From assembly GCA_033581555.1 (NCBI GenBank), contig JAVQSZ010000001.1:128001-192000 (forward strand): DNA of 64,000 nucleotides. Direction: 5' to 3'. The DNA comes from Nitrososphaerota archaeon (GTDB lineage: Archaea; Thermoproteota; Nitrososphaeria_A; Caldarchaeales; Calditenuaceae). A program made the translations under genes and the position numbers. Each line of letters starts with the position of its first letter. Positions within the stretch are counted from its first letter, which is position 1. The notes beneath the pieces are model-generated. The model did no database searches, was not told the DNA's origin, and worked only from the letters and a program-made list of their open reading frames with translations. This document shows, one piece after another, positions 7,776 through 63,755 of this stretch.

Positions 7776-8327
7776 GTGCAGGTCTTCAGGCCCTACGTCG
7801 ACCTGAGGAGGTCGGCCGTGGTGCTGGACGACAGGAGGCTCGGGAAGCAGCGGGTCGAGTGCAAGCAGGTCCTGAAAGCGATCCTCAGGAAGTTGGGCCT
7901 GATCGACGACGGCCTCAGGGGATGGCTCAACCACCCGGTCGTCCTCCTCTACTTCAACGAGGGGAGGCCCTACGTCAGGGACCTGGTCGGGTTCTTCTGG
8001 GCCTGCGTCGAGGAGTGGAGGATGAGGGGGTACAGCAGCTCGATAGGCCTCGAGGACGTAGACCCCCTTCTCGGGAGGATCGAGGTCACGGAGGGCACGC
8101 CGGTCACCCGGGTCCACGAGATCGAGTACCGGAGGATACTCCTGGTGAAGGACCCAGAGCACTACGTCAGGGCGTTCCCGAGGGAGGAGGTGATTGAGGT
8201 CCTCGAGACCGAGCCGGTCCTCGTGAGCGGGATCAACGGCTGGCTCTTCGAGGACTTGAAGAGCTACGAGAGGGCCGTGAGGAGGATCAGGAGGATGCTC
8301 GAGAAGAGGGTTGCTGGAGGGGCTTAA
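7776..8327 (+). CDS. Pyrimidine-dimer DNA glycosylase / T4 endonuclease V-like protein
   Basis: MQVFRPY...LDDRRLGKQRVECKQ...GWLNHP...EWRMRGY pattern. Confidence 0.8.
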   Translation: MQVFRPYVDLRRSAVVLDDRRLGKQRVECKQVLKAILRKLGLIDDGLRGWLNHPVVLLYFNEGRPYVRDLVGFFWACVEEWRMRGYSSSIGLEDVDPLLGRIEVTEGTPVTRVHEIEYRRILLVKDPEHYVRAFPREEVIEVLETEPVLVSGINGWLFEDLKSYERAVRRIRRMLEKRVAGGA

Positions 8328-8419
8328 GCCCCCTCCGGGCGCGTTGACGTCGAAGTCCCTCGGGAGGACCCTCTCGGTCAGCCTGGTCTGGAGGGCTCCT
8401 TCTCCCTAACAGCCGGATT

Positions 8420-8680
8420 GTCGAGGTTCACCCTCCTGACGTCCTCTGGGACGGCCTCGAGCCCGGAGACCTCGCCTTACCGCTCGACGAGCTCCTCCAT
8501 GACCTCTTCCCAGACGCCTGCCTCCTTCAGGCCCCTCACCAGGTATCCGTTGCACTCGAAGAACTTCCCGGAGAGCTTCCGCCCGCTAAGGAGGTTGCTG
8601 AGGTACGGGTCGGGGTCCGGCGTCGTCCCGGCTGTGATCGAGATCGTCGCGGTCGGCGAGATCGCTAGGCGTGGTTGGCC
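8420..8680 (-). pseudogene. Degraded C-terminal fragment of a ribonucleotide reductase large subunit
   Basis: LAISPTATISITAGTTP...KLSGKFFECNGYLVRGLKEAGVWEEVMEELVER*GEVSGLEAVPEDVRRV resembles the RNR APTxTISxxAG region. In-frame TAA at 8477-8479; no N-terminus. Confidence 0.7.
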
Positions 8681-8712
8681 GCCGAAGAGAGGACGGACCA
8701 GTGAAGCCCGCG

Positions 8713-9168
8713 TCAGAGGAGGGCGTCGACGATGTACGCGACTATCGTTCCGTAGAGAACGTGGAGCGCGACGCTGAGGGCCGAAGGCCTCCACCCGAGC
8801 GGGTGTTTGGTGATCGAGACCCCGGTGAGGGGCTTATGGATGAGCGCAAGCGTGAAGACCCAGAGGAAGACCCCGAAGGCGGGACCGAGGACCAGTGGGC
8901 CGAGCAGGGTGAATTGGGGCACTAACGCGATGAAGGCGCCGTAGGCCATCGCGGCGATGCCTCCGTTCGCGAAGTGGAAGAGGAACCCGATCGAGAAGGA
9001 GTCCTCCGGCCTGCGCCCCATCACCTTCGATGCGATCATCTGGTTCTCGTGCCACTCGAGAATTCCGACAGTCGACCACCTTCGCCAGAAGAAGTACTGT
9101 GGCACGCTCATCACCGCGGTCGCCACGATGCCCGCGAAGAGACCGTATGCGGCGGCCTCGATGACCAC
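8713..9168 (-). CDS. 4-TM membrane protein of unknown function
   Basis: GLFAGIVATAVMS...GFLFHFANG...ALHVLYG; intramembrane histidines. Confidence 0.65.
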   Translation of the reverse strand: MVIEAAAYGLFAGIVATAVMSVPQYFFWRRWSTVGILEWHENQMIASKVMGRRPEDSFSIGFLFHFANGGIAAMAYGAFIALVPQFTLLGPLVLGPAFGVFLWVFTLALIHKPLTGVSITKHPLGWRPSALSVALHVLYGTIVAYIVDALL

Positions 9169-9926: not shown

Positions 9927-11894
9927 ATGCGAGTTTCCTGGATGATCGGGGGGGCGCAGGGGAGCGGCGTTGACTCCTCCGCCAATGTATACGCGTATGC
10001 CGCCGCCTCCTCCGGTTACAACGTCTATGGGAAGAGGGAGTACTTCTCGAACATCAAGGGCAGACACAGCTACTTCACCGTCGTCGCGTCTGACGGTCCG
10101 GTGAGGAGCGTCACCGACGAGGTCCACGTCCTGACGAGTTTCGACGCCGAGACCGTATTCAGGCACGCCTTCGAGGTGATGAAGGGCGGCGTGCTGATCT
10201 ATGACAAGTACCTCGAGGCTGAGCGGCTGAAGAACCAGTCGATGCTGGAGCCGGAGGAGATGGAGAGGCTGGAGCGCGAGCTCGAGGAGAGGGGCGTCTC
10301 GGGGACCGTGAAGGACGTCGTCAGGGCGGCTGAGGAGGGTGGGGCGCACGTGGTCCCGATGCCCTACATGGACCTCCTGAAGAGGGTGGGTGAAATAATA
10401 GGCGAGAGCCAGCTCAGCGCGCTCACCCGAATGGTCAACACGCTAGCCGTCGCGGCCTCCTTCAAGATCCTCAACGGAGAGATCGAGTACCTCGAGAAGG
10501 GGCTGAACTACGCCTTCAGGGCGAAGAGGGCGATCGTGAGGAACAACGTGATAGCGTGCCAGGTCGCATACGAGTACGTCGGTTCGGAGTTCGACGGCGT
10601 CAAGCTCGACGTGAACATCAGGCCGAGGCCCAACGCCAACAACGGCCGCAGGGTCCTCATCACGGGGACCTCGATGGTGGGGATCGCGAAGATCGCCGCG
10701 GGGTGCAGGGTGCAGGCCTATTACCCGATAACGCCCGCCGCCGACGAGAGCTTCTACCTCGAGGACGAGATGGAGTTCGGGGTCAATCCCGAGGCGGAGA
10801 CGGACCTCCCGGCCCTGGCCGAGTCGAAAGTCCTCTCCGAGAAGACGAGCGTCGTGGTCTTCCAGACTGAGGACGAGTTGGCCGCGATAGACCTGGCCGT
10901 CGGGGCGGCCTTAGCGGGAGCTAGGGCCGCGACCGCGACCTCCGGACCCGGGTTCTCCCTGATGCCCGAGGGCCTAGACTGGGCCAGCATAAACGAGGTG
11001 CCGGTCGTGATCACGATCTACTCGAGGGGAGGGCCGAGCACGGGCCTTCCGACCAGGCACGAGCAATCAGACCTACTCTTCAGCGTCTTCGCGGGTCACG
11101 GAGAAGCGCCGAGGATAGTCCTCGCCTCTGGCGACATCGAGGAGGCCTTCTACGACACGATAAGGGCCTTCAACTACGCCGAGCGGTACCAAATGCCGGT
11201 AATTCACCTACTCGACAAGTCAATAGCCAACTCGACGCAGAGCGTACCGTTCCCGGACCTCAGCAGGGTCGTGATAGACAGGGGAATACTCCTCGATTCG
11301 GCCGACAGGGAATACAAGAGGTTCGAGTTCACCGACTCAGGCATCTCGCCGAGGATCCCCTTGGGGACCAAGGACGTCGTATTCTGGAACACCGGCGACG
11401 AACACGACGAGCTCGGCCACATCTCCGAGGACCCCGTCAACAGGATCAGGATGATGGAGAAGAGGATGAGGAAGCTCGAGGTGGCCGCGAGGGAGATTCC
11501 GGCCGACGAGAAGATAGCCGTGTACGGCGACCCATCTGCGGAGAACTGGATCATCAGTTGGGGCTCCACGAAGGGCCCGGTGCTCGACGGCCTCGACCTG
11601 CTGAGGGAGGAGGGCTTCGACCACAACCTGGCGTTCCTTCAAGTCAAGCTCCTCTGGCCGTTCCCCGGGGAACTGATCAAGGAGACGTTGAAGGGCGCGA
11701 AGAGGGTGATCGACCTCGAGCAGAACTACATGGGCCAGATGGGGCTGCTGATGAGGATGACTACCGGGATGGAGCCTACGAACTTCGTCCTGAAGTACAA
11801 CGGCAGGCCCTTCACGATGACCGAGGTCCGCGACGCGGTCAAGGCGGTCATCAGGACCAACGTCAAGAGGCTCGTCACGAACAGGGGCAGGTAG
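9927..11894 (+). CDS. 2-oxoacid:ferredoxin oxidoreductase alpha subunit (gamma-alpha fusion)
   Basis: GGAQGSGV, YYPITPA, QTEDELAA, TATSGPGFSLM, RGGPSTGLPT. Confidence 0.93.
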   Translation: MRVSWMIGGAQGSGVDSSANVYAYAAASSGYNVYGKREYFSNIKGRHSYFTVVASDGPVRSVTDEVHVLTSFDAETVFRHAFEVMKGGVLIYDKYLEAERLKNQSMLEPEEMERLERELEERGVSGTVKDVVRAAEEGGAHVVPMPYMDLLKRVGEIIGESQLSALTRMVNTLAVAASFKILNGEIEYLEKGLNYAFRAKRAIVRNNVIACQVAYEYVGSEFDGVKLDVNIRPRPNANNGRRVLITGTSMVGIAKIAAGCRVQAYYPITPAADESFYLEDEMEFGVNPEAETDLPALAESKVLSEKTSVVVFQTEDELAAIDLAVGAALAGARAATATSGPGFSLMPEGLDWASINEVPVVITIYSRGGPSTGLPTRHEQSDLLFSVFAGHGEAPRIVLASGDIEEAFYDTIRAFNYAERYQMPVIHLLDKSIANSTQSVPFPDLSRVVIDRGILLDSADREYKRFEFTDSGISPRIPLGTKDVVFWNTGDEHDELGHISEDPVNRIRMMEKRMRKLEVAAREIPADEKIAVYGDPSAENWIISWGSTKGPVLDGLDLLREEGFDHNLAFLQVKLLWPFPGELIKETLKGAKRVIDLEQNYMGQMGLLMRMTTGMEPTNFVLKYNGRPFTMTEVRDAVKAVIRTNVKRLVTNRGR

Positions 11895-21840: not shown

Positions 21841-22299
21841 TCACTTGGCCTTTCTGGCGACCCCGACCGGCCCTCCCTTCCTCCCGGTCGTCCTCGTCCT
21901 CTGTCCCCTCACCTTCAGGCCCAGCGCGTGCCTCACTCCCCTCCACGACCTGATCCTCTTCTCCCGTTCTATGTCCTCCCTGACGGCCAGCCTCAGGTCC
22001 GGGCCGATGAGGTGGAGGTTCTTCCCGGTCACCGGGTCGCTCCTCCTGTTGAGCATCCACACCGGGATGCCGTACTTCAATGGGTTCCTGATCGCGTCCT
22101 CGATCTGGGAGAGCTGCTGCTCGGAGAGCTGGCCCAACCTCAAGGTCGGGTCTATCCCGAGGGCCCTCGAGATCGCGTATCCGAGGTTGATCCCGACGCC
22201 CTCGATCGCGGCAAGTGCGAACGGGACGTGCTTGGTCCCGTCCAGGTCGGTCCCCAGCAGCCTGACTATCAGCTTCGCCTCCCTCTGTTGGGCCGCCAT
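21841..22299 (-). CDS. rps13: 30S ribosomal protein S13
   Basis: IVRLLGTDLDG, IEGVG, PVWMLNRR, RHALGLKVRGQRTRTTGR. Confidence 0.97.
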   Translation of the reverse strand: MAAQQREAKLIVRLLGTDLDGTKHVPFALAAIEGVGINLGYAISRALGIDPTLRLGQLSEQQLSQIEDAIRNPLKYGIPVWMLNRRSDPVTGKNLHLIGPDLRLAVREDIEREKRIRSWRGVRHALGLKVRGQRTRTTGRKGGPVGVARKAK

Positions 22300-22410
22300 C
22301 CCCACCAGCTGCCGAGCAGGTCGTAAAAAACGTTCACGCCGCCGGCGTTCGTCCGGGAAGCCGTTCAAACTTAAAAAAATGGACGGAGCCAATCCGGACA
22401 GGGTTAAGGC

Positions 22411-23577
22411 GTGACTTCGCAGCAGTCCTCGGTCAAGTACGTGATAGAGGCGAAGGTGGAGGTTGACGGCATCGTCGACAAGAACGACGTGATAGGCGCG
22501 GTCTTCGGGCAGACGGAGGGGATCTTCAGCGCCGACCTCGACCTGAGGGAGCTCCAGAAGACCGGGAGGATCGGGAGGATAGAGGTCCACATCCACGCCC
22601 AGGGCGACAGGACCGTCGGGAAGGTCCTGGTCCCCACGAGCGTCGACAGGTTCCACACCGCCCTGATCGCGGCTATGGTCGAGAGCGTCGACAGGGTAGG
22701 TCCGTACTCCGCGAGGGTCACGATCGAGAAGATCGAGGACGTCAGGGCCGAGAAGAGGAAGCGGATCATCGAGAGGGCGAGGTCCCTGCTGATCGAGTGG
22801 GAGAGGAGGAGGGTGCCGGAGGTCGACGAGGCCCTGAAGGAGCTCGAGGAGACGATCGCGAAGTCCAGGGTCGTCGAGATAGGGCCCGACAACCTCCCCG
22901 CGGGGCCCGAGGCCCTGACCAGCGACGAGGTGATCGTCGTCGAGGGCAGGGCCGACGTCATCAACCTCCTCAGGCACGGCTATTTCAACGCGATCGGAGT
23001 CGAGGGCGTCAAGGTCCCCTACTCCCTTGAGGAACTGGTGAGCAGGAAGAGGGTGATCGCGTTCCTCGATGGCGACAGGGGAGGCGACATGATCCTGAGG
23101 GAGCTGGCGAGGCGGATCAAGATCGACCTGGTCGCGAGGGCTCCTCCGGGCAGGGAGGTGGAGTCCCTGGGGGCCAAGGAGATCGCCGAGGCCCTCGCCA
23201 ACGCCGTCCCGCTCCAAGAGGCCCTGAAGAGGATAGGGGTCCACATCGAGCACGAGAAGGCTGAGCATGCCGCAGCGCCGTTCGAGAAGCTGAAGAGGTA
23301 CGTCGAGGAGGTCGAGGGCAGCCTGATGGCGATAGGCCTCAAGGACGACCTCTCGGAGGCCTTCAGGGTCCCGGTAAGCGAGCTCTACCAAAGGCTCTCC
23401 TCCGATGGCGACGTGAAGTACGTCGTCTTCGACGGCGTCGTGACCCAGAGGCTCGTGGACCTAATGAAGGAGAGGGGGAGAGAGGTGCTGCTGGTCGGGG
23501 CGAGGGTCGCGGAGAACGTCCAGAGGGCGGGGAACGTGAGGGTCTACAACTTCGAGTCGGTCAAGAGAGCCGCGTGA
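22411..23577 (+). CDS. dnaG: Archaeal DnaG-type primase / exosome-associated protein
   Basis: DVIGAVFGQTEG, LQKTGRIGRIEV, TOPRIM VVEGRADV and FLDGDRGG. Confidence 0.95.
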   Translation: MTSQQSSVKYVIEAKVEVDGIVDKNDVIGAVFGQTEGIFSADLDLRELQKTGRIGRIEVHIHAQGDRTVGKVLVPTSVDRFHTALIAAMVESVDRVGPYSARVTIEKIEDVRAEKRKRIIERARSLLIEWERRRVPEVDEALKELEETIAKSRVVEIGPDNLPAGPEALTSDEVIVVEGRADVINLLRHGYFNAIGVEGVKVPYSLEELVSRKRVIAFLDGDRGGDMILRELARRIKIDLVARAPPGREVESLGAKEIAEALANAVPLQEALKRIGVHIEHEKAEHAAAPFEKLKRYVEEVEGSLMAIGLKDDLSEAFRVPVSELYQRLSSDGDVKYVVFDGVVTQRLVDLMKERGREVLLVGARVAENVQRAGNVRVYNFESVKRAA

Positions 23578-23949: not shown

Positions 23950-24282
23950 ATGAGCGGCCCCGTCGCGGGTATTCCGGGCTACCCGTACTCGCTTATTGCG
24001 CTCCTCGCAGCCTCCTTCGTTGTGCTCCTCTTCGCGGGCCCGAGGACGCCGAAGCTGGAGCCCCGCGTCACCCCCATCCACAAGGTCTCCCGAGCGCTGA
24101 GGTACGCGCTGGGCGAGGAGGAATCGATCGACCTGAAAAGCGCTAAGTGGCTCTTCTACCGGCTGGGGCCGAGGGGCCCCGGGAGATTTTCTGGGCTCAG
24201 CATGAGGGCCCTCTTCGCCCTGACGTCAATGGCTCCCCGTGCCAGGAGGTGGTTGGTCAGGTGGGCGGCCAGGAGAGGGTAG
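23950..24282 (+). CDS. Hypothetical single-TM protein
   Basis: One hydrophobic segment; the ORF overlaps the start of the MoxR gene. Confidence 0.5.
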   Translation: MSGPVAGIPGYPYSLIALLAASFVVLLFAGPRTPKLEPRVTPIHKVSRALRYALGEEESIDLKSAKWLFYRLGPRGPGRFSGLSMRALFALTSMAPRARRWLVRWAARRG

Positions 24283-25235
24283 AGCTGCTGAGCCTCCAGG
24301 AGCTGAAGGAGGTCGTCCATAGGGTCGTCAGCGAGATCCACAGGGTCATAGTCGGGATGGACGACGCGATAGAGGCCCTGATCATCGCGCTCCTTACCGA
24401 GGGCCACGTGCTGATGGAGGGGGTGCCGGGACTCGCGAAGACCTACCTCGCCAAGTACTTCGCCAGGACGCTCAGCCTCTCCTTCAGCAGGATCCAGATC
24501 ACGAGCGACCTCCTCCCGTCCGACATCACGGGTTCCCTGGTCTACGACAGGGCCACCGGACAGTTCGTCTTCAGGAAGGGACCGATATTCGCGAACCTGG
24601 TCCTAGCAGACGAGATCAACAGGGGCCCTCCGAGGACGCAGTCGGCGCTACTTGAGGTGATGCAGGAGCGTCAGGTGACCGTCGAGGGCGTGAGCTACGA
24701 GGTCCCGAGGCCCTTCATGGTGATAGCGACCCAGAATCCTATCGAGCTCGAAGGGACATTCCCGCTCCCCGAGGCCCAGCTCGACAGGTTCCTGATGAGG
24801 GTCGTCGTCACCCATCCGGAACGCGACCAGGAGATCGAAGTCCTCAAGATGAAGCAGGCCTCCGGAGAGGAGCCCGACGTCAGCCCGGTCGTCAAGGCGG
24901 ACACGGTGCTGAAGGGTATAGCCGCGATCTCGTCGGTGTACGTCGACGAGTCCATCATGGCGTACATTGTAGACGTCGTCAGGAGGACGAGGCAGATGCC
25001 GGAGGTCTACCTCGGTGCCAGCACCAGGGCCGAGGTCGCCCTGATGTACGCCGCGAAGGCCAAGGCCGCGATCTCCGGGTACCCTTACGTCACGCCGGAC
25101 CACGTGAAGGCAGTCGCTCCCTTGGTCCTGAACCACAGGATAATCCTGAGGTCCAGGAGGAAGGGGCCCTTCTCCTCCTGGTCCGAGTTCGAGGTGATCC
25201 GCAGGGCCCTGGAGGAGGTGGACGTCCCGGTTTGA
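24261..25235 (+). CDS. MoxR-family AAA+ ATPase
   Basis: EGVPGLAKT, DLLPSDITG, LADEINR, ATQNPIELEGTFPLPEAQLDRF. Confidence 0.95.
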   Translation: MGGQERVELLSLQELKEVVHRVVSEIHRVIVGMDDAIEALIIALLTEGHVLMEGVPGLAKTYLAKYFARTLSLSFSRIQITSDLLPSDITGSLVYDRATGQFVFRKGPIFANLVLADEINRGPPRTQSALLEVMQERQVTVEGVSYEVPRPFMVIATQNPIELEGTFPLPEAQLDRFLMRVVVTHPERDQEIEVLKMKQASGEEPDVSPVVKADTVLKGIAAISSVYVDESIMAYIVDVVRRTRQMPEVYLGASTRAEVALMYAAKAKAAISGYPYVTPDHVKAVAPLVLNHRIILRSRRKGPFSSWSEFEVIRRALEEVDVPV

Positions 25236-26491
25236 TGACGGTCCAAGCGAGACTGCTGCTGATCGAGGCCGCGGTCTCGTCCTTCCTCTTCGGGGCCGTC
25301 TTCCCGAACCCCGTCATGTTCCTCTCCATGGCCTTCCTGACGTTCTTCTTCGCATTCTACGTGCTTTTGACCTCTCGGAGGCTATCGTCGCTGAACCACT
25401 CCTCGATCGAAGTGAGGAGGGAGCTATCCGCGGAGGAGTTGCCCGAGGGCTCGACTGTGGAGGTCAAGGTGGAGGTGGAGCTGGGGTGGGAGGGAGGCGT
25501 GGAGGTCCGGGAGCTCTTCCCGAGCGGCCTCAGGCTGAGGGAGGGAGCGAGCTCGGCCAGGTCCACGCTCAACGGCAGGGGCAGGCTCGGCTTCTCCTAC
25601 AGGGCCTCCCTCTGGAGGGGAGTGAGATCCGCGGAGTTCAAGGGGGTGGCCTGCACGCTCACCGACCCGTGGAGGCTCGTCAGCAGGACGGTCGTCGTGC
25701 CGTCTCCGGGCGTGGTCAGGTCATCGAAGGAGAGGACCAGGTCTAGTGAGTTCGAGACCGGCGGGAGGCTCCTGGGCCCGGTCTTCGGGACCGTGGTGAA
25801 TCCGTTCGTCGGTGAGGACGCCCACTTCGTCGGGGTAAGGCCCTTCATTCCTGGCGACAAGCTCCGCAGCGTCCACTGGAGGAGCACGGCCAAGCTCACC
25901 GACAACGAGATTCTCGTGAAGAAGTTCGAGAGGCTCGCGAGGGGAAGGGTCGTCGCGGTGATCGACTGCTCGCCGGAGATGAGGTTCGGGACATCGCCCG
26001 ACTACTTCGACGACGCGCTGGACTTCCTTGAGCCCGTCTGCGTCCAGTTCATCGAGCAGGGTAACTCGGTGAGGCTCTTCGCGGTGACCGGGGAGGGGCT
26101 CCTGACACAGTCGCCCAGGTCGCCCGCGGAGGTCGAGGGCTTCCTGAGGTCGCTCGAGGTCTCGGATGTCGGGAGGCTGAAGTACGCCCCCGAGGTGGCC
26201 GAGTCGCTCACGCCGGGCTCCTTTCTCATCGTCGTGACCTCCCTCGGATCGGCGCAGATCCCTGAGCTCTCGGAGCTCGCACGCGCGGCGGTCTCGATGG
26301 GATGCAGGGTCCTCGTGGTGTACCCGAGGGTCGCTTCGTACCTGGGCCGCGCGATGGACCTCGCGAGGGGCCTGCTCGAGGCCATCCAATCGAGGGACTT
26401 GGCAGCCTTCCCGGAGGAGTGCGCGATCGAGGAGCTGGAGGGCGTTCCGAGCATCAGGGCCGCAGGGAGGTCGGTCGCGCGTGAGGGCTAG
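25232..26491 (+). CDS. DUF58 (vWA-like) protein with N-terminal TMs
   Basis: GVRPFIPGDKLRSVHWRSTAK, VIDCSPEM. Confidence 0.9.
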   Translation: MMTVQARLLLIEAAVSSFLFGAVFPNPVMFLSMAFLTFFFAFYVLLTSRRLSSLNHSSIEVRRELSAEELPEGSTVEVKVEVELGWEGGVEVRELFPSGLRLREGASSARSTLNGRGRLGFSYRASLWRGVRSAEFKGVACTLTDPWRLVSRTVVVPSPGVVRSSKERTRSSEFETGGRLLGPVFGTVVNPFVGEDAHFVGVRPFIPGDKLRSVHWRSTAKLTDNEILVKKFERLARGRVVAVIDCSPEMRFGTSPDYFDDALDFLEPVCVQFIEQGNSVRLFAVTGEGLLTQSPRSPAEVEGFLRSLEVSDVGRLKYAPEVAESLTPGSFLIVVTSLGSAQIPELSELARAAVSMGCRVLVVYPRVASYLGRAMDLARGLLEAIQSRDLAAFPEECAIEELEGVPSIRAAGRSVAREG

Positions 26492-27197
26492 CGAGCTGGT
26501 CCTCGGCCTGATGGCCTTGTCGCCGGCGCTATACATGCTGGCGGCCACAGTCGTCGAGACGAGGTGGACCCTGTTCTCGGCGCTCGGGTTCATCTCCCTC
26601 TCCACGACCATGCTCCCAGCGAGGATGCAGTCCCTCACCCTCGCGCTGATCTACGCCCCCGCGCTCTACGCGGTCTACGACCTGGTCGCCTCCAACAACC
26701 TGTACCTCCTCGACCTCGCGGGGGGATACGTGGTCTCCCTTCCGGTCCTGATCGTGGCCTCGGCGCTGCAGGCGAGTTCGGTCGCGGGCCTCGTGGGGGC
26801 GTACGTCTCGTCGGTCCTGGTCTCGATGGTCGGCCTCTTCGGCGCCGAGATCTCGAAGGGAAACCCGCGGGCCTTGCTCCACGCGCTCATCTCCTCCTTC
26901 CTGAGGGGGCAGGAGAGGGAGCTGGGCGCGGTCGATCCCTCGCTGCTCGCGCCGGTGGTGCCGCTAATGGCCGTCTCCCTGATATCGCTCCTGCTCTTCG
27001 CCCACCATAGGCTGGGGCTGAGGTCCGAGTCCCTCTACGGGACGCTGATCAAGTCCGGGGCGGCCTCGGTGGCCCTGCTCGCGCTGATCGTCTACTACTC
27101 GGCTGTCTTTCCAGACGGCGTCGCGGCCGGGACGCTCGCGGTCGCGCTCGTCGTCCTGTTGGGTGGTGCGTATGCGGCGGTCGCTGCTAGGCGCTGA
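26481..27197 (+). CDS. Polytopic membrane protein of unknown function
   Basis: About 7 hydrophobic segments; overlaps both neighbouring genes. Confidence 0.65.
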   Translation: MRASELVLGLMALSPALYMLAATVVETRWTLFSALGFISLSTTMLPARMQSLTLALIYAPALYAVYDLVASNNLYLLDLAGGYVVSLPVLIVASALQASSVAGLVGAYVSSVLVSMVGLFGAEISKGNPRALLHALISSFLRGQERELGAVDPSLLAPVVPLMAVSLISLLLFAHHRLGLRSESLYGTLIKSGAASVALLALIVYYSAVFPDGVAAGTLAVALVVLLGGAYAAVAARR

Positions 27198-28713
27198 GCT
27201 GCTGATCGTCGCGGTCCTGCTCTCGGCGCCCTTGCCGGCCGCCTCCCAGGCCACCGAGCCCTGTGCGCTGCTGGTCGGATACGGAGGTCAGGGGTTCCTG
27301 CCCTTCGTCGACGGGGGCGCCCTGAACTTCGCGGTCGGCGAGCGGCTCCACGTCCTCACCCCGGCAGGGGGCGCGACGGTCCAGCTGATCGACCCGCGAG
27401 GCAGGGTCGAACGTCACGAACTCGCAGGAGGGATTCAGACGAGGCTGAAGGAGTTCGGGCGCGGCGACGGAGGCGTCTGGAGGCTGGTATCCGGCGACAG
27501 ATGTGAGATGACCTTGACGGTCTCGGAGAGGGGTTCGGTGATCTACGGCGAGGTCGTGGTGGAGAAGGACTTCAGGGGCGCGATCGTCCTGAGCATCAGG
27601 GGTCCGCCCTACATCGGCTTCAGCGTGGAGGAGCCGAGGGACGACAGGAACGTCCTCTGGACGAGGCCGGGCGGAGAGCTGCTCCTCGAGCTCGGGAGGC
27701 CCATCAGGTCGGTCGTCGTCTACCTGCTCTACCCCGACCGCGTGACGATCTCCGGTAAGGTTGGCGAGACGCCGTTCACCTACACGATCGATCCGCTGGT
27801 CGGCGTCTACAGGTACGAAAGGCCCGTGAGGGGGACGCAGGTCCCGGTGAGGCTGCCGGAGCTCGGGAGCGTCGGCCCGGGCGGTACCTTCCCCCTCAGG
27901 TACGGCACTTACACGCTGAGGGTGATGGGGACGGCCCCCGACGGCCAGCAGTTCTCGATGACGTTCGCGGTCGAGGTCGCTCCCTTCGCGTTCAGGGCCC
28001 CGAGGCTCTCGACGTACTTGGTGACTGACGTCGACAAGTTGAGGGAGGGGATAAGGCTGGTCTTCCTGAACTACGAGACCGGGACCGTCGAGTCGATCGC
28101 CCTCAAGGTGCCGATGTACGAGGTTGTGGTCCTCGACGAGAGGACCGGCCAGCCCATCGAGGACTACTCGCTCTCGGTGGAGGGGATGATCGGCGTTAGG
28201 GACGGGGCCGCCACCGTGCTCCTCCCGAGGAGCTTCGACCTGCGAGAGGTCCAGGTCGGCGAAGACGTGCTGAAGGTGAAGCCGTCTCTGATCATCGAGG
28301 GCGTGAACTTGACCGGCGTGGTCCGCGAGGTCATTCTGAGGAGGGGCGAGCCGACCGTCCTGAGCGTCCCGATGTCCGAGGTCCAGCTCAGGGTCAGGCT
28401 CGCGGGTCACCAGGATGCCATAAGGGCCAAGGTCTCGCTGAACGGCTCGACCCCCCTTGAGCTCGAGGGCGCCGCCCGCATCAGGTTGCCGGCCTACCTT
28501 TACAACGCGACCGCAGAGACGCCCTGGGGAAGGGTCGGGGGGCTCTTCGACGCCTCCAGGGAGAGGGAGGTGGAGCTCGTCGTCTACGCGCCGACCGACC
28601 TGACGCTCGCTCTGGCCTTTGCGGCCGCCGCCCAGCTCGCGGTTCTCGCGGCGATCTCCTTAAGAGCCTACAGGGCCGGGTCCCGTCACAGGGTTAAGAG
28701 CGAGTCAGGATGA
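27163..28713 (+). CDS. Exported beta-rich protein with C-terminal membrane anchor
   Basis: Signal peptide (RRSLLGAELLIVAVLLSAPLPAAS), C-terminal TM and basic tail. Confidence 0.7.
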   Translation: MVRMRRSLLGAELLIVAVLLSAPLPAASQATEPCALLVGYGGQGFLPFVDGGALNFAVGERLHVLTPAGGATVQLIDPRGRVERHELAGGIQTRLKEFGRGDGGVWRLVSGDRCEMTLTVSERGSVIYGEVVVEKDFRGAIVLSIRGPPYIGFSVEEPRDDRNVLWTRPGGELLLELGRPIRSVVVYLLYPDRVTISGKVGETPFTYTIDPLVGVYRYERPVRGTQVPVRLPELGSVGPGGTFPLRYGTYTLRVMGTAPDGQQFSMTFAVEVAPFAFRAPRLSTYLVTDVDKLREGIRLVFLNYETGTVESIALKVPMYEVVVLDERTGQPIEDYSLSVEGMIGVRDGAATVLLPRSFDLREVQVGEDVLKVKPSLIIEGVNLTGVVREVILRRGEPTVLSVPMSEVQLRVRLAGHQDAIRAKVSLNGSTPLELEGAARIRLPAYLYNATAETPWGRVGGLFDASREREVELVVYAPTDLTLALAFAAAAQLAVLAAISLRAYRAGSRHRVKSESG

Positions 28714-28724
28714 CTCTCCGCAGA

Positions 28725-28838
28725 GCCGGGGTCCCATAGCGGCCATTGGGGCGGCCTCGAGATCGTGAAGGGTCTGGCCGGAACGCGAAAGCCGCTGCCC
28801 CCTCGGGGGGCGCGCGGGTTCGAGTCCCGCCCCCGGCG
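28725..28838 (+). tRNA. tRNA-Ser(CGA) with 28-nt anticodon-loop intron (28762-28789 if at 37/38)
   Basis: Acceptor GCCGGGG/CCCCGGC, anticodon stem GCGGC/GCCGC around CT-CGA, long variable arm, GGTTCGAGTCC T-arm, upstream TTAAG promoter. Confidence 0.9.
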
Positions 28839-28942
28839 TTCTTAATAGACGAGTACAAAGTATCGCGCCCGCAATTGAAGCACGATGGTCTACAGAAATG
28901 ATATTGACGATGTGAGGATGGTTACATGTTGAGTGGAGTGAA

Positions 28943-29652
28943 ATGATGGGGCCTGACTTCCGCGAGCTCACCGTGGAGGACCTCTTAGGCCAACCGCTCA
29001 ACGGATATGAGCGCAAACACGCGCCAAAGAAGCTTTACCTGACCGGGACGTTGAGGGTCCCATTCGAAGCTCCGCGAATATCAGTAGTGGGAACTAGGTC
29101 GCCGAGTCGCGTGGGGGTCACGTTCACCCGTGAGTTGGTCAAGAGGCTCGTTGAGAGGGTGATCATCGTGGTGAGCGGGCTGGCCAGGGGAATCGACACT
29201 GAGGCCCACACGACCGCAATCGAGTCCGGAGGTCAGACCGTCGCCGTGCTAGGGACACCTCTCGACAGGTTCTAACCCCCGAGAACCGAAAACTGCAGCA
29301 GCTGATCATGGAGAAACACCTAGCGGTGAGTCAGTTCCCCTTCGGCCACAAGACGCATCGCTCTGACTTCGTCAAGAGGAACAGGACGATGGCTTTGATC
29401 TCTGACGCGACGATCATCGTCGAGGCCGAAGACGGAGGAGGGACTCTGTCGCAGGGATGGGAGGCGATAAGGCTCAAGAGGCCTCTGTCTCTGGCTCCCT
29501 TCCTTCTCGAGAGGCGGGACTTGAAATGGCCCGATCGAATGCTCGACTACGGGGCTGAAGTCTTGAACCTAGAGAACATCGAGGAGATCTGCGAGACCTT
29601 GCCGCTGTATCCAACCTCCAAATATGAAGACTTGCTCGCCCTTCTGAAGTAG
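28943..29652 (+). pseudogene. dprA: DprA/SMF (SLOG superfamily) protein, frameshifted near 29273
   Basis: ISVVGTR, VSGLARGIDTEAH, VAVLGT / PENRKLQ, VSQFP, FVKRNRTMA, IIVEA. TTC TAA CCCCC GAG AAC is one base short of a continuous F-Y-x-P-E-N. Confidence 0.85.
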
Positions 29653-29657
29653 CAGGG

Positions 29658-30311
29658 TTGATTGGTGAGATTAGCAGGCTCCCGTTTGGCCCACTTTGGT
29701 CTTGGACTAACAAACCGACAGACGAAGAAGGCCACAAGGCTAAAACACTTTGCTACGCCCTCAAGAGATATCAAGTCTTCAACAAAGATTTAGATGCGAT
29801 TAAGATGGCGGTCGATAGCCTTGACTCTAGGATGGGTTCCCTTCCCTTCAGCGACTTCTTCTCTGGCGAGGTAGCCCTAGTTCCCATTCCAAGCAGTAAA
29901 CCAACGAGGCCAGACGATGTATGGGTATCCCGGGACATCTGCGATGAGATGGAAAAGAGGGGATTGGGCCTCAAGTTAGAGTTGTTAAAGCGGGCGTATC
30001 CAATTAGGAGGTCATCCCTCAGTCCTCCGGGCGAAAGACCTTCGCCTATAGAGCATTACAACTCTATGAGAGGCAGAAAGATCGAGCGAATACCCACAAG
30101 GGTCATCCTAGTGGATGACGTGATAACAAAAGGGCACACGATGCTCGGCTCTGCTTAGAGAGTCATAGAGTTATACCCTAAAGCAGACATCCGCGGATTC
30201 GCTGTCTTCAGGACAATAAGCAACACCTCGGAGTTCGTACGGATGGATGACCCGGTAAAGGGCGAAATAATTTACGATCCCGAGTTAAGAACTGCGAGGA
30301 GAATACCGTGA
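29658..30311 (+). pseudogene. Phosphoribosyltransferase-fold (ComF-like) protein with in-frame TAG at 30156-30158
   Basis: LVPIPSS and the PRPP-loop ILVDDVITKGHT; frame stays open 50 codons past the TAG (RVIELYPKADIRGFAVFRT...) to TGA at 30309-30311. Confidence 0.8.
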
Positions 30312-30312
30312 A

Positions 30313-30409
30313 TGGGGCCGGTGGGATTCGAACCCACGACCTGCGGGTGACCTCTGACCAGCGATCTGCACCTGGAGCCCGCCGCCATACCTTGCTAGGC
30401 CACGGCCCC
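30313..30409 (-). tRNA. tRNA-Trp(CCA) with 23-nt intron (30349-30371)
   Basis: Reverse complement GGGGCCG...GCGGG CT CCA G[intron]A CCCGC...GGTTCGAATCCCAC CGGCCCC A. Confidence 0.92.
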
Positions 30410-30525: not shown

Positions 30526-30924
30526 ATGGACTACACCGAGACGATCGACGAGATCCTCGACCACTACAGGAACCCCAGGAACTACGGTGAGCTCCCGGAC
30601 GCGACCGTGAGGGCGAAGGACTCGAACCCGCTCTGCGGCGACGTGATCGAGATGTCCCTCAAGATCGAGGGGGACAGGATCGTCGACGTGAGGTTCAGGG
30701 GGAAGGGATGCGCGATAAGCCAGGCCTCGGCCTCGATGCTCACCGATCGGCTGAAGGGCATGACCCTGGACGAAGCGAGGTCCTTGAACCGGGACTACGT
30801 CCTCGGGATGCTGGGGATTGAGCTGAGCCCCGTGAGGGTGAAGTGCGCAACTCTAAGCCTCAAGGTGCTGAAGCTGGGGATCTACTCGTACCTGGGGAGC
30901 TCCACGAAGGACCTGGAGGTCTAG
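30526..30924 (+). CDS. IscU/SufU-type Fe-S scaffold protein
   Basis: ILDHYRNPRNYG, NPLCGD, GCAISQASAS, RVKCA. Confidence 0.93.
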   Translation: MDYTETIDEILDHYRNPRNYGELPDATVRAKDSNPLCGDVIEMSLKIEGDRIVDVRFRGKGCAISQASASMLTDRLKGMTLDEARSLNRDYVLGMLGIELSPVRVKCATLSLKVLKLGIYSYLGSSTKDLEV

Positions 30925-31033: not shown

Positions 31034-32140
31034 ATGAGCGAGCTGGAGAGGCTTGCGGCCTCGAAGGCGAGGGAGGCGGTGCTGCTCGACAGGTCTGGTT
31101 CCAAGTCCGAGGCGATCAGGAGGTACAGGGAGGCGATCGGCATGCTCAGGAAGCTGATCGAGTTGACCGAGAGCCCGATCAACCGGGAGGTCTACAGGGA
31201 GAGGATCGAGGCCTACGAGCGGAGGATTATGGAGCTCCAGGAGGGAAGGGCGGACCAGGAGCCTGGGTCTGACGGCCCGTCTCAACCGCCGAAGGCCCCG
31301 GTCCAGGACTTCAGGCCGCCCGTGAAGTGGGACGACGTCGTCGACCTCGAAGAGGCGAAGAGGGCGATTAAGGAGAGCATCGTCTACCCGGCGAGGAGGC
31401 CTGACCTCTTCCCGCTCGGGTGGCACAACGGGATCCTCCTCTTCGGACCACCTGGCTGCGGGAAGACGCTGCTAGTGGCGGCGACGGCCAACGAGATCGA
31501 CGCGAAGCTCTACGTCGTCGACTCGGCGAGCCTGATGTCGAAGTGGCTCGGCGAGAGCGAGAAGAACCTACAGAGGGTGTTCAGCTCGGCGAGGTCAGAG
31601 GCTGCGCGGGGCAGGACCGTGATCGTCTTCATCGACGAGGTCGACTGGATAACGAGCTACAGGGCCGTCGAGGTTGGGGGAGAGGCGCGGGTGAGGGCCC
31701 AGCTCCTCTCGGAGATGGACGGAATCCTCAGCAAGTTCAACAAGTCCTTCCTCTTCCTGATGGCCGCGACCAACAGGCCCTGGAGCCTCGACGAGCCGTT
31801 CGTCAGGAGGTTCCAGAAGAGGATCTACATCCCGCCGCCCGACAGGCAGGTGAGGCTGATGACCCTCCGTCACTACACGAAGCGGCTGAGGCTCGCAGCG
31901 AACGTCGACCTGGAGACGCTCGCGGACCGGCTGGAGGGCTACTCGCCCGCCGACATCTACTCGATCTGCCTCGACGCCCAGACCACCGCCCTCAGGAGGG
32001 TCTTCGAGGAGGGAGTGGAGGAGGTGCCGGAGATAACCCAGGAGGACTTCCTGGAGGCGGTGAAGAAGAGGAGGCCCTCGATATCCGCGGAGACGTTGAG
32101 ACGCTACGAGGAGTGGAATAGGGCCTACGGCGCGGTCTGA
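31034..32140 (+). CDS. cdvC: Vps4/CdvC AAA+ ATPase with N-terminal MIT domain
   Basis: MIT helices (AREAVLLD...AIRRYREAI...YRERIEAY), FPLGW, GPPGCGKT, SKWLGESEK, ATNRPWSLD. Confidence 0.9.
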   Translation: MSELERLAASKAREAVLLDRSGSKSEAIRRYREAIGMLRKLIELTESPINREVYRERIEAYERRIMELQEGRADQEPGSDGPSQPPKAPVQDFRPPVKWDDVVDLEEAKRAIKESIVYPARRPDLFPLGWHNGILLFGPPGCGKTLLVAATANEIDAKLYVVDSASLMSKWLGESEKNLQRVFSSARSEAARGRTVIVFIDEVDWITSYRAVEVGGEARVRAQLLSEMDGILSKFNKSFLFLMAATNRPWSLDEPFVRRFQKRIYIPPPDRQVRLMTLRHYTKRLRLAANVDLETLADRLEGYSPADIYSICLDAQTTALRRVFEEGVEEVPEITQEDFLEAVKKRRPSISAETLRRYEEWNRAYGAV

Positions 32141-32144
32141 CCCC

Positions 32145-32909
32145 TCAGCTGACCTCGGCGTAGGATATCTCGATCAGGCCTTTCCTCGCGAGCCCTTCCA
32201 GTGCCTCCTCCACCACGTCCCTGGGCAAGCCCGTGACGCCGCAGACCGCCTCGACGTCGAACCCCGCTTGGTCCTCGATCGAGCCGATCGCCTCGTAGAC
32301 GATCCTCTCCTTCTCCGTCATCACGGGCACCTCTGGGAAGGCCCTCCTCACCCTCTCCGCAGCGATCCTCTTGGCGTCCTCGAGGACCCTCAGGGCCTCG
32401 TCTTCAAGGGCATTGACTTGACCCGAGCTCGGAGTCGGGACGCCTGCGGAGGTCGCCGTGATGATCGTCTCGATCTCCTCCGAGAGCCTCTTCAGGTTCT
32501 CCGAGACCTCGGGCGAGACGGAGGCGACCTCGCTCGCGACCCTGGAGAGGAGCTGCCTCACCGAGACCACTAGCGCCAGCACCTCGGTCAGATCCACGAC
32601 GGTAATGAGCCGTACCTTCACCTGCTCCATCAAGAGCAGGTTGCCCATTATCACCTTGGCCAATCTCCTCAGATGCATGATCTCCTCTGCGTAGAGCTTC
32701 GCGTGCTCCTCGTCCCCGGACGAAAGGTGGTAGACGCAACGCTCGAAGTACTCCCTCGCCTTCTGCTCCAGATCGGAGTACTTCCTGTTGAGCCTCAGGA
32801 TGCTCCCGTTCAGCACCGATATCGTCCTGTTCAGGCTCGCCTCGAGCGAGGAGACCCTCTTCGGTCCGTCGGCGTGCCGACCCCATAAGGCGAACCGCAT
32901 CGGCCGCAT
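32145..32909 (-). CDS. cdvB: ESCRT-III/Snf7 protein (CdvB-like) with C-terminal winged helix
   Basis: Helical core with AKLYAEEIMHLRR...LMEQVKVRL; MIM2-like FPEVPV; wH tail VEEALEGLARKGLI. Confidence 0.8.
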   Translation of the reverse strand: MRPMRFALWGRHADGPKRVSSLEASLNRTISVLNGSILRLNRKYSDLEQKAREYFERCVYHLSSGDEEHAKLYAEEIMHLRRLAKVIMGNLLLMEQVKVRLITVVDLTEVLALVVSVRQLLSRVASEVASVSPEVSENLKRLSEEIETIITATSAGVPTPSSGQVNALEDEALRVLEDAKRIAAERVRRAFPEVPVMTEKERIVYEAIGSIEDQAGFDVEAVCGVTGLPRDVVEEALEGLARKGLIEISYAEVS

Positions 32910-33122
32910 CCAACCCTTCGGCCGGATATTAGCGATCGAGCCGCCACCTCCTCCGGCCAGCCCATGATAATCTCGGGGTAATCCTCCGCCTGCCACGCGA
33001 CTCGCGTTCAACGGTCTACGGTCACTCGACCGCTGACCCGTATCAGATGTTGACGCGACGAAAGCTAATTACCCGCAGCCGAGCTCAAAGGAGGTGGGGG
33101 GTGGTGCGGATTCATCACCATA

Positions 33123-63128: not shown

Positions 63129-63659
63129 CCGGACGTCTTAGTCAACAACGTCGGAGTCTACGAGACCAGGGACTTCTTCGAGGTCGATCCCGAGTTCCTA
63201 GAGCGGACGCTCGCGGTCAACCTCAAGTCCGCCTTCCTGATGTGCCAGCACATGATCAAGTCGAGGCAGAAGAGAGGAGGGGTCATAGTGAACGTGAGCT
63301 CGATCGAGGCGGTCCTGCACCTCGTGAAGGGGCTCACGCACTACAGCGTTAGCGAAATCGGCCTAGTCGCCCTTACCAGGAGCCTCGCGAGGTAGTACGG
63401 CGTACAGGGCTTCAGGGTGAACGCAGTCATGCCGGGAGGCATAAGGACGCCCGGGACCGACAGGCTGATGCGGGAGGCCCTGAAGAGGTTGCAGGTCGAC
63501 TTCTTCGTGACAGGGCTCAGTTACCTCCCAAGGGTACCGATGAGGAGGCTCGGGAGGCCCGATGAGGTCGCACGGGTCGTCCTGTTCCTGGCAACAGACT
63601 TAGCTAGTTATGTCAACGGCGCGGTAATAGTAGTGGACGGCGGGTTCCTGACCGATTAG
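63129..63659 (+). pseudogene. Short-chain dehydrogenase (SDR) remnant
   Basis: PDVLVNNVG...VIVNVSS...HYSVSEIG (YxxxK lost)...TRSLAR*YG.GFRVNAVMPG...VDGG; in-frame TAG at 63393-63395; no GxxxGxG N-terminus. Confidence 0.85.
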
Positions 63660-63660
63660 G

Positions 63661-63755
63661 TGCCCCGGCCGGGATTTGAACCCGGGTCACCGGCTTTCTT
63701 CAGTCCCGACCGCTTCGAGAGGCCGGTATACTTGACCGGACTATACTACCGGGGC
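63661..63755 (-). tRNA. tRNA-Glu(CTC) with 20-nt intron (63696-63715)
   Basis: Reverse complement GCCCCGG...CCGGC CT CTC G[intron]A GCCGG...GGTTCAAATCCCGG CCGGGGC A. Confidence 0.92.

Follow-up and report, generated by a model that had tools for sequence, protein, structure and literature searches.

A broken ShosTA-family gene pair, very probably a former toxin-antitoxin module, between two tRNA genes of a Nitrososphaerota archaeon

We examined a 64,000-nt stretch of a Nitrososphaerota archaeon (GCA_033581555.1, contig JAVQSZ010000001.1, positions 128,001 to 192,000), referred to here as the window, and all coordinates below are positions within it. Between two of its tRNA genes lies a 1474-nt islet which we are fairly sure is a horizontally acquired and recently inactivated short-form ShosTA type IV toxin-antitoxin (abortive-infection) module. 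Both genes are broken, so the window copy is dead. A sequence-only reading of the window had taken the pair for an archaeal version of a DprA plus PRTase defence system. The family assignment holds, as the pair belongs to ShosTA, but the system is already catalogued and not new in archaea, where ShosTA is described as one of the commonest defence systems in the parts consulted of three reports (bioRxiv 10.1101/2024.10.26.620412; PMC11291487; PMC13465236). The window pair adds one dead copy to this known kind and is not a new archaeal system.

The islet and its boundaries

The islet (28839..30312) is the entire spacer between two tRNA genes whose 3' ends face each other. On its left is an intron-bearing tRNA-Ser(CGA) with a long variable arm, at 28725..28838 on the plus strand (Rfam RF00005, 29.0 bits, model positions 1-71), and on its right is tRNA-Trp(CCA), also with an intron, at 30313..30409 on the minus strand (RF00005, 57.8 bits). 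The islet has a GC content of 0.531, compared with 0.642 for the 64-kb window; of 1251 segments of equal length taken along the window, none is as low, and the GC profile agrees. GC3 is 0.56 in the PRTase gene and 0.75 in the DprA gene, while 25 host genes with Pfam support have 0.88 +/- 0.06. This atypical GC and GC3 points to a foreign origin. The islet contains a DprA-domain gene, then, 5 nt beyond its stop codon, a PRTase gene on the same strand, and nothing else. The earlier description of about 1.5 kb of atypical composition between facing tRNA 3' ends, with the PRTase gene 5 nt downstream of the DprA gene, agrees with these coordinates and values.

ARAGORN with default settings misses both intron-bearing tRNAs, and they are recovered with Rfam and with ARAGORN when introns are allowed (-i). 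The Rfam score of tRNA-Ser is right at the gathering score.

Family assignment

The two genes match the PADLOC pair PDLC03961/PDLC03962, the models of ShosA and ShosT of the ShosTA (Shosta) system. The shosA pseudogene is on the plus strand and is in two parts. The 5' part (28943..29275) runs for 110 codons to a TAA where the frame is lost (PDLC03961, 4.5e-33; Pfam DNA_processg_A, 2.9e-26), and the 3' part (29275..29652) continues in the -1 frame and ends with TAG (3.2e-26 and 1.6e-15 with the same models). The shosT pseudogene (29658..30311, plus strand) has 217 codons, begins with TTG and ends in a TGA that is 1 nt from the 3' end of tRNA-Trp, and its match to PDLC03962 (9.9e-19) spans profile positions 63-215 of 237. 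This is the PADLOC check that the sequence-only reading had proposed. By bit score, PDLC03961 gives 112.8 and 90.3 on the two shosA fragments and the competence model TIGR00732 gives 77.6 and 41.4; a second ShosA model, PDLC02997, is weaker at 35.8.

Pfam DNA_processg_A covers profile positions 23-110 in the 5' part and 114-210 in the 3' part, out of 212. Outside this domain there are about 22 aa on the N-terminal side and about 28 aa on the C-terminal side, which leaves no room for a SAM or winged-helix domain, and the proposal of a minimal DprA Rossmann domain without either extension is therefore borne out. The ShosA profile (303 positions) is aligned from position 92-94 onward, with the 3' part taking positions 186-287. 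An intact relative, P0004 (235 aa), is 90% identical to the 5' part of shosA and 95% identical to the 3' part.

The AF2 model of ShosT (pLDDT 93.6, pTM 0.91) is a single PRTase fold over the whole 217 aa, so this is a short, PRTase-only toxin. Its top fold matches in the PDB are H. pylori ComF (7p0h, 3.4e-5) and E. coli ShosT with PRPP (8zvc, 1.2e-4); the latter has the highest TMq of the fold matches at 0.48, a modest structural likeness. The PRPP-binding loop, VILVDDVITKGHT, is at 30099..30137 on the plus strand. It holds D153, D154 and G159, which are invariant in an alignment of 50 sequences and all present here, and overall the window ShosT retains 7 of the 7 invariant residues of that alignment.

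At the sequence level, a PDB search with the short ShosT profile returned no ShosT chain at E <= 1 (the best match was APRT at 0.0035), and the archaeal ShosA profile matched S. pneumoniae DprA (8.3e-41) better than E. coli ShosA (2.3e-27). The homology to the characterised E. coli system is therefore distant.

We tried two other assignments and rejected them. PsyrTA (RqlHI) also combines a DprA-like antitoxin with a PRTase-domain toxin, and its PsyrA model matches the window at 1.6e-17. However, PsyrA scores 61.8 bits where ShosA scores 112.8, and the PsyrT model, which has 689 positions, does not match the window ShosT. The reading as a retron PRTase (III-A) was rejected on PADLOC scores.

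Relatives of the pair

We used the 80 best related loci from a search with the ShosT family, among which the window's own genome is absent. These came from a full HMMER search; searched by word index, the window ShosT recovered just its own sequence and a single relative. The relatives of ShosT are mostly about 200-240 aa, and the best locus shares 43% identity. The two-gene architecture is conserved: in 74 of the 80 loci shosT is immediately preceded by a shosA in the same orientation, and five of the six exceptions are ended by the end of the contig. There is no conserved third gene, as the 139 immediate neighbours of the cassette fall into 134 families. Seventy of the 80 loci are archaeal, and in two listings of 120 matches the sources named by organism (5 and 10) are all archaeal. 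Archaeon HR01 and Ca. Caldarchaeum supply the sequences closest to the window ShosT in our tree (SH-aLRT 95).

None of the 80 loci was seen to be a same-site relative of the window. When the window flanks were compared with all 80 we found no shared synteny and only paralogue-level matches that do not exceed 47% identity. None of 50,697 phage records searched with tblastn gave a match.

Short pairs of a DprA gene followed by a PRTase gene are also found on bacterial plasmids, such as pALVIN01 of Allochromatium vinosum and p77023 of Paracoccus alcaliphilus. They have the same gene order and tight coupling, with DprA proteins of 228-231 aa and PRTases of 208-216 aa, and the PRTases share 28-31% identity with the window ShosT across 93-94% of that protein. 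Unlike the window genes, which are 5 nt apart, the two plasmid genes overlap. The plasmid pairs are bacterial and intact and adjoin rep/par genes and other defence genes (AIPR, AbiEii, cas6), whereas the window copy is archaeal and broken. Such neighbours on the plasmids support a toxin-antitoxin character of the pair.

Proposed function of the intact module

The ShosTA system of E. coli APEC O1 (8ZVA-8ZVD, 9VZO, 9W2P/Q) likewise has two genes, one for a DprA-like antitoxin and the other for a toxin with a PRTase domain. The two systems have the acidic pair of the PRPP loop in common: D331/D332 of E. coli ShosT, the equivalent of D153/D154 here, is described as required for toxicity (PMC11961720). 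The E. coli proteins are longer. ShosT has 424 aa with an N-terminal pyrophosphatase-like hydrolase domain (residues 1-164) that is lacking in the 217-aa window protein, and ShosA has a SAM domain (residues 1-94) that is lacking in ShosA of the window type, which is about 235 aa. The window copy also differs in being broken and in having a host without RecA. Archaea have RadA in place of RecA.

By analogy with E. coli ShosTA (PMC11961720, PMC12961424), the intact ShosT would be a small toxin of the PRTase fold, with PRPP bound by its conserved VDDV-T-x-G-x-T loop. It may poison nucleotide (purine) metabolism and in this way cause replication stress and growth arrest. ShosA would be an ssDNA-binding antitoxin with a DprA domain that offsets the damage indirectly, via a recombinase, which in the archaeon would be RadA; the consulted parts of the E. 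coli literature report no direct binding of ShosT to ShosA. If a virus halts the expression of host genes or fills the cell with ssDNA, the antitoxin might be lost or diverted, and the toxin would be freed. Both papers are on the APEC O1 system and, in the parts consulted, neither covers short-form or archaeal ShosTA; toxicity, neutralisation and protection are described as demonstrated for the long E. coli form only (PMC11961720, PMC9122126). It is from this long form that we infer the biochemical mechanism, the role of RadA and an antiviral role in archaea. The anti-phage precedent for a DprA and PRTase pair that the sequence-only reading named from bacterial satellite hotspots is real (Rousset 2022, PMC9122126), although it is located in a P2-like phage hotspot.

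It is rather unlikely, but deserves consideration, that the short archaeal pair is not primarily antiviral and is a selfish addiction (stabilisation) module or an accessory of nucleotide metabolism or DNA repair, with the window copy as a relic. The plasmid copies sit directly beside replication and partition genes, which is the classic place of an addiction module, and the flanks of the 14 archaeal loci that we looked at are mostly housekeeping genes with no clear defence islands. The ShosT tree also clusters largely by phylum (7 changes for Nitrososphaerota compared with 23 when labels are shuffled), and the cited literature, in the parts consulted, contains no experimental test of the short pair in archaea. 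On the other side, the long-form homologue gives E. coli protection against T7 and lambda (PMC9122126, PMC11961720), and some loci have AAA_15, NERD, PIN, PD-(D/E)XK, AbiEii or cas6 genes as neighbours. Addiction and defence are also not mutually exclusive.

As a tentative suggestion, the short and mainly archaeal cassette (70 of the 80 best loci) could be the ancestral, minimal ShosTA and work differently, with ShosA acting together with RadA or sensing viral ssDNA directly and the PRTase-only toxin using a host pyrophosphatase or another acceptor. Transfers to bacteria and plasmids might then have seeded the elaborated forms.

The value of the window copy is mainly in its correct annotation: it is a defunct member of a system already catalogued, and its genes are not competence genes. 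The short archaeal form is more interesting, since it is abundant, has a strictly conserved two-gene architecture and is found in hosts without RecA, on which the E. coli antitoxin depends. To learn how DprA-domain antitoxins act in archaea, one could well begin with an intact relative.

State of the window copy

The break in shosA (29270..29280, plus strand) is a missing base that causes a -1 frameshift near 29273-29275. It can be seen in the sequence and in the alignment with homologues, which read F-Y-P-P-E-N, with a P-to-T mismatch at the break column. The break in shosT is an in-frame TAG at codon 167 (30156..30158, plus strand), in a variable alignment column and with conserved sequence downstream. 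Through this stop ShosT loses a core beta-strand together with its C-terminal hairpin. With shosA frameshifted after codon 110 and shosT cut after codon 166, the module does nothing now, and the sequence-only reading, which spoke of repaired proteins, had already implied that both genes are broken. Among columns conserved in at least 90% of sequences, ShosT keeps 21 of 23 and ShosA keeps 69 of 72, and intact homologues show a range that includes these values. As the conserved residues are otherwise retained, we conclude that the inactivation is recent.

Such good retention would also be expected if the breaks were sequencing or assembly errors and the organism itself had an unbroken, working pair. 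The shosA frameshift is at a run of five C's, a typical site of indel errors. We think that this is improbable. The truncated 166-aa ShosT ORF is recorded on 3 contigs, and a base substitution to TAG is atypical of an assembly error. The shosA break is an indel plus a substitution, with TAA or ACC where homologues have Y-P. Comparable decay, independent of the window, is also present in 4 of the 80 other loci, and the toxin is the broken gene in three of these four. This recurrent, toxin-first decay fits the turnover expected of costly toxin-antitoxin and abortive-infection modules.

Competence genes and recoding

There is very little chance that the pair consists of the housekeeping competence or recombination genes of the archaeon, DprA plus ComF. 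Relatives are labelled "DNA-processing protein DprA" or "ComF family protein" in the source databases, and there are real likenesses: competence DprA (Smf) has the same Rossmann (SLOG-type) domain as ShosA, with S. pneumoniae DprA as the best sequence match in the PDB, and ComF/ComFC has a PRTase fold like ShosT, with H. pylori ComF as the top fold match. However, the family falls below the NCBIfam equivalog and subfamily cut-offs. Intact relatives score 220-245 bits on ShosA and 139-169 on TIGR00732 (dprA, cut-off 191.15), and P0004 scores 236 and 145. On ShosT they score 58-79 bits, compared with 0-24 on TIGR00201 (comF, cut-off 233.55), where the window ShosT has 13.5 bits, no relative exceeds 23.6 and one has no match. 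ComF has an N-terminal Cys-rich zinc finger, and on inspection of the sequence we found none of this kind in the window ShosT. The family also differs from competence genes in lacking SAM and winged-helix domains, in its carriage on plasmids and in its mobile, variable contexts; the window pair is of foreign composition, and neither conserved synteny nor DNA-uptake genes alongside were seen in the 80 loci. By score the proteins are set apart from competence DprA and ComF, and the PADLOC identity together with these scores and the unrelated contexts upholds the earlier view of a DprA and PRTase conflict module. Since both genes are broken, both are also dispensable in this organism.

We would give even less weight to programmed recoding, in which shosA would be read with a -1 frameshift and shosT through its TAG so as to tune the dosage of toxin and antitoxin. 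Although the coding sequence downstream of both breaks is fully conserved, the shosA shift has no slippery heptamer of the form X-XXY-YYZ, TAG is an ordinary stop that ends 5 of the 25 Pfam-supported window genes and shosA itself, the homologues are uninterrupted, including the 90%-identical P0004, and the breaks in other loci are at different positions.

Position between the tRNA genes

How the islet was inserted we can only infer. A Pfam scan of the ORFs between 12 and 49 kb of the window turned up no integrase. When we looked for att-like repeats or pieces of tRNA between 28400 and 30700, only matches of 11-28 nt came up, and we put these down to chance or to a general similarity of T-arms; there was no repeat of a tRNA end longer than chance and no extra tRNA-like match at E <= 1. 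Only 4 of the 80 relatives are within 500 nt of a tRNA, which by a rough estimate is about the chance level. The proposal that the pair was delivered to a tRNA hotspot was therefore not borne out, as an integrase and att-like repeats are lacking and the pair is not part of a defence island: two of the 53 other window ORFs match PADLOC at 1e-8, Vps4 and a mad2-like ORF that is 27 kb away. The Vps4 match is a generic AAA likeness.

Identity of the two genes in the islet

The region at 28840–30312 is exactly the spacer that separates two convergent tRNA genes, tRNA-Ser(CGA) (28725–28838, + strand) and tRNA-Trp(CCA) (30313–30409, − strand). Default ARAGORN missed both, and we recovered them with ARAGORN -i and Rfam. 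The tRNA-Ser, which has a long extra arm, is right at the Rfam gathering score (29.0 bits) and tRNA-Trp reaches 57.8 bits; their identities come from ARAGORN with introns. Introns occur in these two and in tRNA-Glu(CTC) (63659–63755), leaving one of the window's four tRNA genes without.

GC content is 0.50–0.58 across the spacer versus 0.62–0.68 on either side. The whole spacer (1474 nt) has a GC of 0.531, below all 1251 windows of equal length in the 64 kb. The PRTase gene has a GC3 of 0.56 and the DprA gene a GC3 of 0.75, compared with 0.88 ± 0.06 (minimum 0.71) among the 25 Pfam-supported genes of the window. This is a genuine anomaly, stronger than any other in the window, and the sequence-only reading described the place correctly as an islet of atypical composition bounded by two tRNA 3′ ends.

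The spacer holds two + strand genes and nothing else. The upstream gene, shosA, is in two pieces (28943–29275 and 29275–29652) that match Pfam DNA_processg_A at 2.9e-26 (profile positions 23–110) and 1.6e-15 (114–210 of 212). Only about 22 residues precede the DprA domain and about 28 follow it, too few for a SAM or winged-helix domain, and the domain is as minimal as had been proposed. The PRTase gene, shosT (29658–30311), begins with a TTG 5 nt past the TAG of shosA, the same spacing that the earlier reading gave, and its TGA (30309–30311) is 1 nt from the 3′ end of tRNA-Trp. Pfam finds only a sub-threshold PRTase match in shosT (Pribosyltran, 0.0038).

PADLOC, which had been suggested as a check, names the pair. 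Its ShosA model PDLC03961 matches the two fragments at 4.5e-33 and 3.2e-26 and its ShosT model PDLC03962 matches the PRTase gene at 9.9e-19, while a second ShosA model, PDLC02997, gives a weak match of 35.8 bits. The alternative is that these are chromosomal competence genes, DprA and ComF. Intact relatives score 220–245 bits with ShosA versus 139–169 with the NCBIfam dprA equivalog (cut-off 191.15), and 58–79 bits with ShosT versus at most 23.6 with comF (cut-off 233.55). We did not find clustering with competence proteins combined with synteny in all relatives, and the earlier view that these are not competence genes holds. The window pair is a ShosTA (Shosta) system. The anti-phage precedent named in the earlier reading for a DprA and PRTase pair is this same system, reported in a P2-like phage hotspot as protecting against T7 and lambda (Rousset et al. 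2022, PMC9122126); Shosta also appears in Millman et al. 2022 (bioRxiv 10.1101/2022.05.11.491447).

ShosTA in archaea is a survey result already in print, with enrichment reported in Asgard archaea (PMC11291487) and presence in 15.95% of archaeal host genomes (PMC13465236). The window locus is therefore a new but degraded copy of a known system; the earlier reading of an archaeal DprA and PRTase system was right about the genes but overstated the novelty. Our literature search found no experimental study of archaeal or short-form ShosTA.

The short form and its genomic contexts

The E. coli APEC O1 ShosT is described as a 424-aa protein with an N-terminal pyrophosphatase-like hydrolase (1–164) and a PRTase (165–424), and in its ShosA a SAM domain (1–94) precedes the Rossmann domain (PMC11961720). 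In contrast, the window proteins are short (ShosT 217 aa, ShosA about 235 aa) and carry neither accessory domain. Their relationship to the E. coli proteins is distant. The short ShosT profile recovered no ShosT chain among PDB sequences (the best match was an APRT, 0.0035), and the archaeal ShosA profile matched S. pneumoniae DprA (8.3e-41) above E. coli ShosA (2.3e-27 and 7e-27).

With the short ShosT as query, a full HMMER run over 1.84 billion representatives found 1468 relatives at E ≤ 1e-3, of which 1050 reach E ≤ 1e-10; the 150 matches listed are mostly about 200–240 aa. Scanning one genome per GTDB species yielded 227 ShosT relatives. The 80 best loci, a ranking biased toward relatives of an archaeal query, are 70 archaeal and 10 bacterial by record title, and the archaeal groups include Nitrosopumilales, Nitrososphaerales, Bathyarchaeia, Woesearchaeota, Nanoarchaeota, Archaeoglobi, Caldarchaeales, Hadarchaeota, Thermoplasmata and others. 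In 74 of the 80, shosA is directly upstream of shosT on the same strand. Five of the other six are cut off by a contig end, and the last (L057) is an orphan shosT (9962–10585) with no shosA or remnant at E ≤ 1 in the 10 kb upstream.

No third gene is conserved with the pair, as its 139 immediate neighbours make up 134 families. There is no conserved context either: the 80 loci form 60 context groups, 55 of them singletons, and the window flanks have no synteny with these loci, only paralogue-level matches at ≤47% identity. Pfam on 139 neighbours in 14 loci found mostly housekeeping genes and a minority of mobile or defence-like ones (AAA_15 ATPase, NERD/nucleotidyltransferase, PIN, PD-(D/E)XK nuclease, serine recombinase, tyrosine integrase and a second PRTase). 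The search of archaea that had been proposed turned up the pair widely, but no clear defence islands in the flanks of these 14 loci. On bacterial plasmids (25 records) the short pair adjoins replication and partition genes, with AIPR, AbiEii and cas6 nearby; it was not found in 50,697 phage records.

Some loci have their own peculiarities. In L021 (Nitrosopumilus) a second PRTase gene (8063–8998, 311 aa) is just upstream of shosA-shosT and matches PsyrT at 7e-12 and ShosT at 1.2e-11. ShosT is near-identical in L070 and L078, a Gemmatimonadetes MAG and a Cenarchaeum MAG (branch lengths 0.025 and 0.052), and the ShosT of a Paceibacter (CPR), L012, nests among Nitrosopumilales in the ShosT tree. 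These placements reflect either cross-domain transfer or binning mix-ups.

Inactivation of the pair

In the alignment, shosA loses its frame where intact homologues have ...LDRFYPPENRKLQ...; the window gene reads ...LDRF, then TAA, and resumes as TPENRKLQ... in the −1 frame. One base is missing at a run of C's. The break also includes a substitution, with TAA or ACC replacing the Tyr-Pro of relatives and a P-to-T mismatch at the break column. The split falls in the middle of the Rossmann domain and would leave an inactive antitoxin.

In the toxin gene, codon 167 is an in-frame TAG. Family members vary at this column, and past it the remaining 50 codons are still well conserved in the family alignment. 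This genome uses TAG as an ordinary stop, at the end of five of the 25 Pfam-supported genes as well as of shosA. A one-off error is made less likely by the protein collection, where the truncated 166-aa ORF is present on three contigs. An AlphaFold2 model of the read-through protein (50 sequences; pLDDT 93.6, pTM 0.91) is a single PRTase fold. Among PDB structures it best matches H. pylori ComF (7p0h, 3.4e-5, TMq 0.43) and E. coli ShosT with PRPP (8zvc, 1.2e-4), the latter with the highest TMq (0.48). Next comes 8zvd, and a third ShosT entry, 8zvb, has a TMq of 0.46 and is 11th by E-value among ordinary PRTases (TMq 0.26–0.39). In the modelled fold the TAG deletes strand 177–186 and the C-terminal hairpin, and we infer that the truncated toxin is inactive.

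Apart from these breaks, both genes look healthy. ShosA retains 69 of 72 columns conserved at ≥90% in the family and ShosT 21 of 23, both inside the range of intact members, and ShosT has every one of its seven invariant residues (K36, P76, R112, R127, D153, D154, G159). The databases include an intact 235-aa ShosA that shares 90% and 95% identity with the two window fragments. Because of this match and the near-full conservation, we conclude that the inactivation is recent.

Independent decay occurs in four of the 80 other loci, and in three of them the toxin is the broken gene, by in-frame stops (L058, L069) or a frameshift (L060); L059 has a frameshift in shosA. Such a pattern is as expected if the toxin has to fail first or jointly with the antitoxin.

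Proposed mechanism

If an intact copy works like E. coli ShosTA (PMC11961720, PMC12961424), the toxin would bind PRPP through a loop with an acidic pair (D153/D154 in the window ShosT) and upset purine metabolism, leading to replication stress and death. The antitoxin would bind ssDNA and a recombinase rather than the toxin, and would repair or prevent the damage until host shut-off or phage ssDNA cancelled its effect. For the short archaeal form, with no fused pyrophosphatase, these steps are drawn by analogy and the recombinase would be RadA.

Origin and insertion site

The window ShosT groups with copies from Archaeon HR01 and a Ca. Caldarchaeum MAG (SH-aLRT 95), with its exact place unsure because of its long branch (1.87 versus a median of 0.39). 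For ShosA too, the closest named proteins come from Ca. Caldarchaeum, at 62–65% identity. The host is a 64% GC archaeon with intron-bearing tRNAs and a Vps4/CdvC gene close to the islet. In GC-rich hosts the GC of the pair tends to be below that of its flanks (0.476 versus 0.546 in L001, 0.474 versus 0.522 in L003, 0.416 versus 0.559 in L006 and 0.539 versus 0.65 in the window); the median difference over 73 loci is just −0.014.

The earlier reading had the cassette delivered to a tRNA hotspot, which is a guess. We found no integrase among 31 Pfam-scanned ORFs in 12–49 kb of the window, no repeat of a tRNA 3′ end around the islet and no extra tRNA-like match by Rfam. A tRNA is within 500 nt in four of the 80 loci (L001, L009, L012, L028), about the chance expectation by a rough estimate. 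We also noticed 21 nt at 30611–30631 that are 86% complementary to the tRNA-Ser T-arm/acceptor end; the stretch is inside conserved coding sequence, a nifU-like ORF, and we take the likeness as chance.

Neighbourhood of the islet

The surroundings are housekeeping, with MoxR/DUF58 upstream and NifU, Vps4 and E1 dehydrogenase downstream. A co-oriented run at 24147–28713 (MoxR AAA ATPase, DUF58 protein, membrane protein and a 516-aa protein without a Pfam match) ends 12 nt short of tRNA-Ser. Another 516-aa ORF call (21841–23391, − strand) matches Ribosomal_S13 only at residues 377–505, and probably extends too far, over more than one gene, in this GC-rich DNA. A 288-aa ORF with no Pfam match at 1e-5 (32145–33011, − strand) adjoins the Vps4/CdvC-type ATPase (31034–32140, + strand; MIT, AAA and Vps4_C by Pfam).

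PADLOC matched two of the 53 other ORFs in the window at 1e-8. One is this ATPase, whose matches to the IetA and TRIP13 models we take as generic AAA likeness. A mad2-like ORF of 347 aa (570–1613, + strand), 27 kb from the islet, is the second; about 155 of its residues match mad2 of the MADS system, at 5.8e-22.
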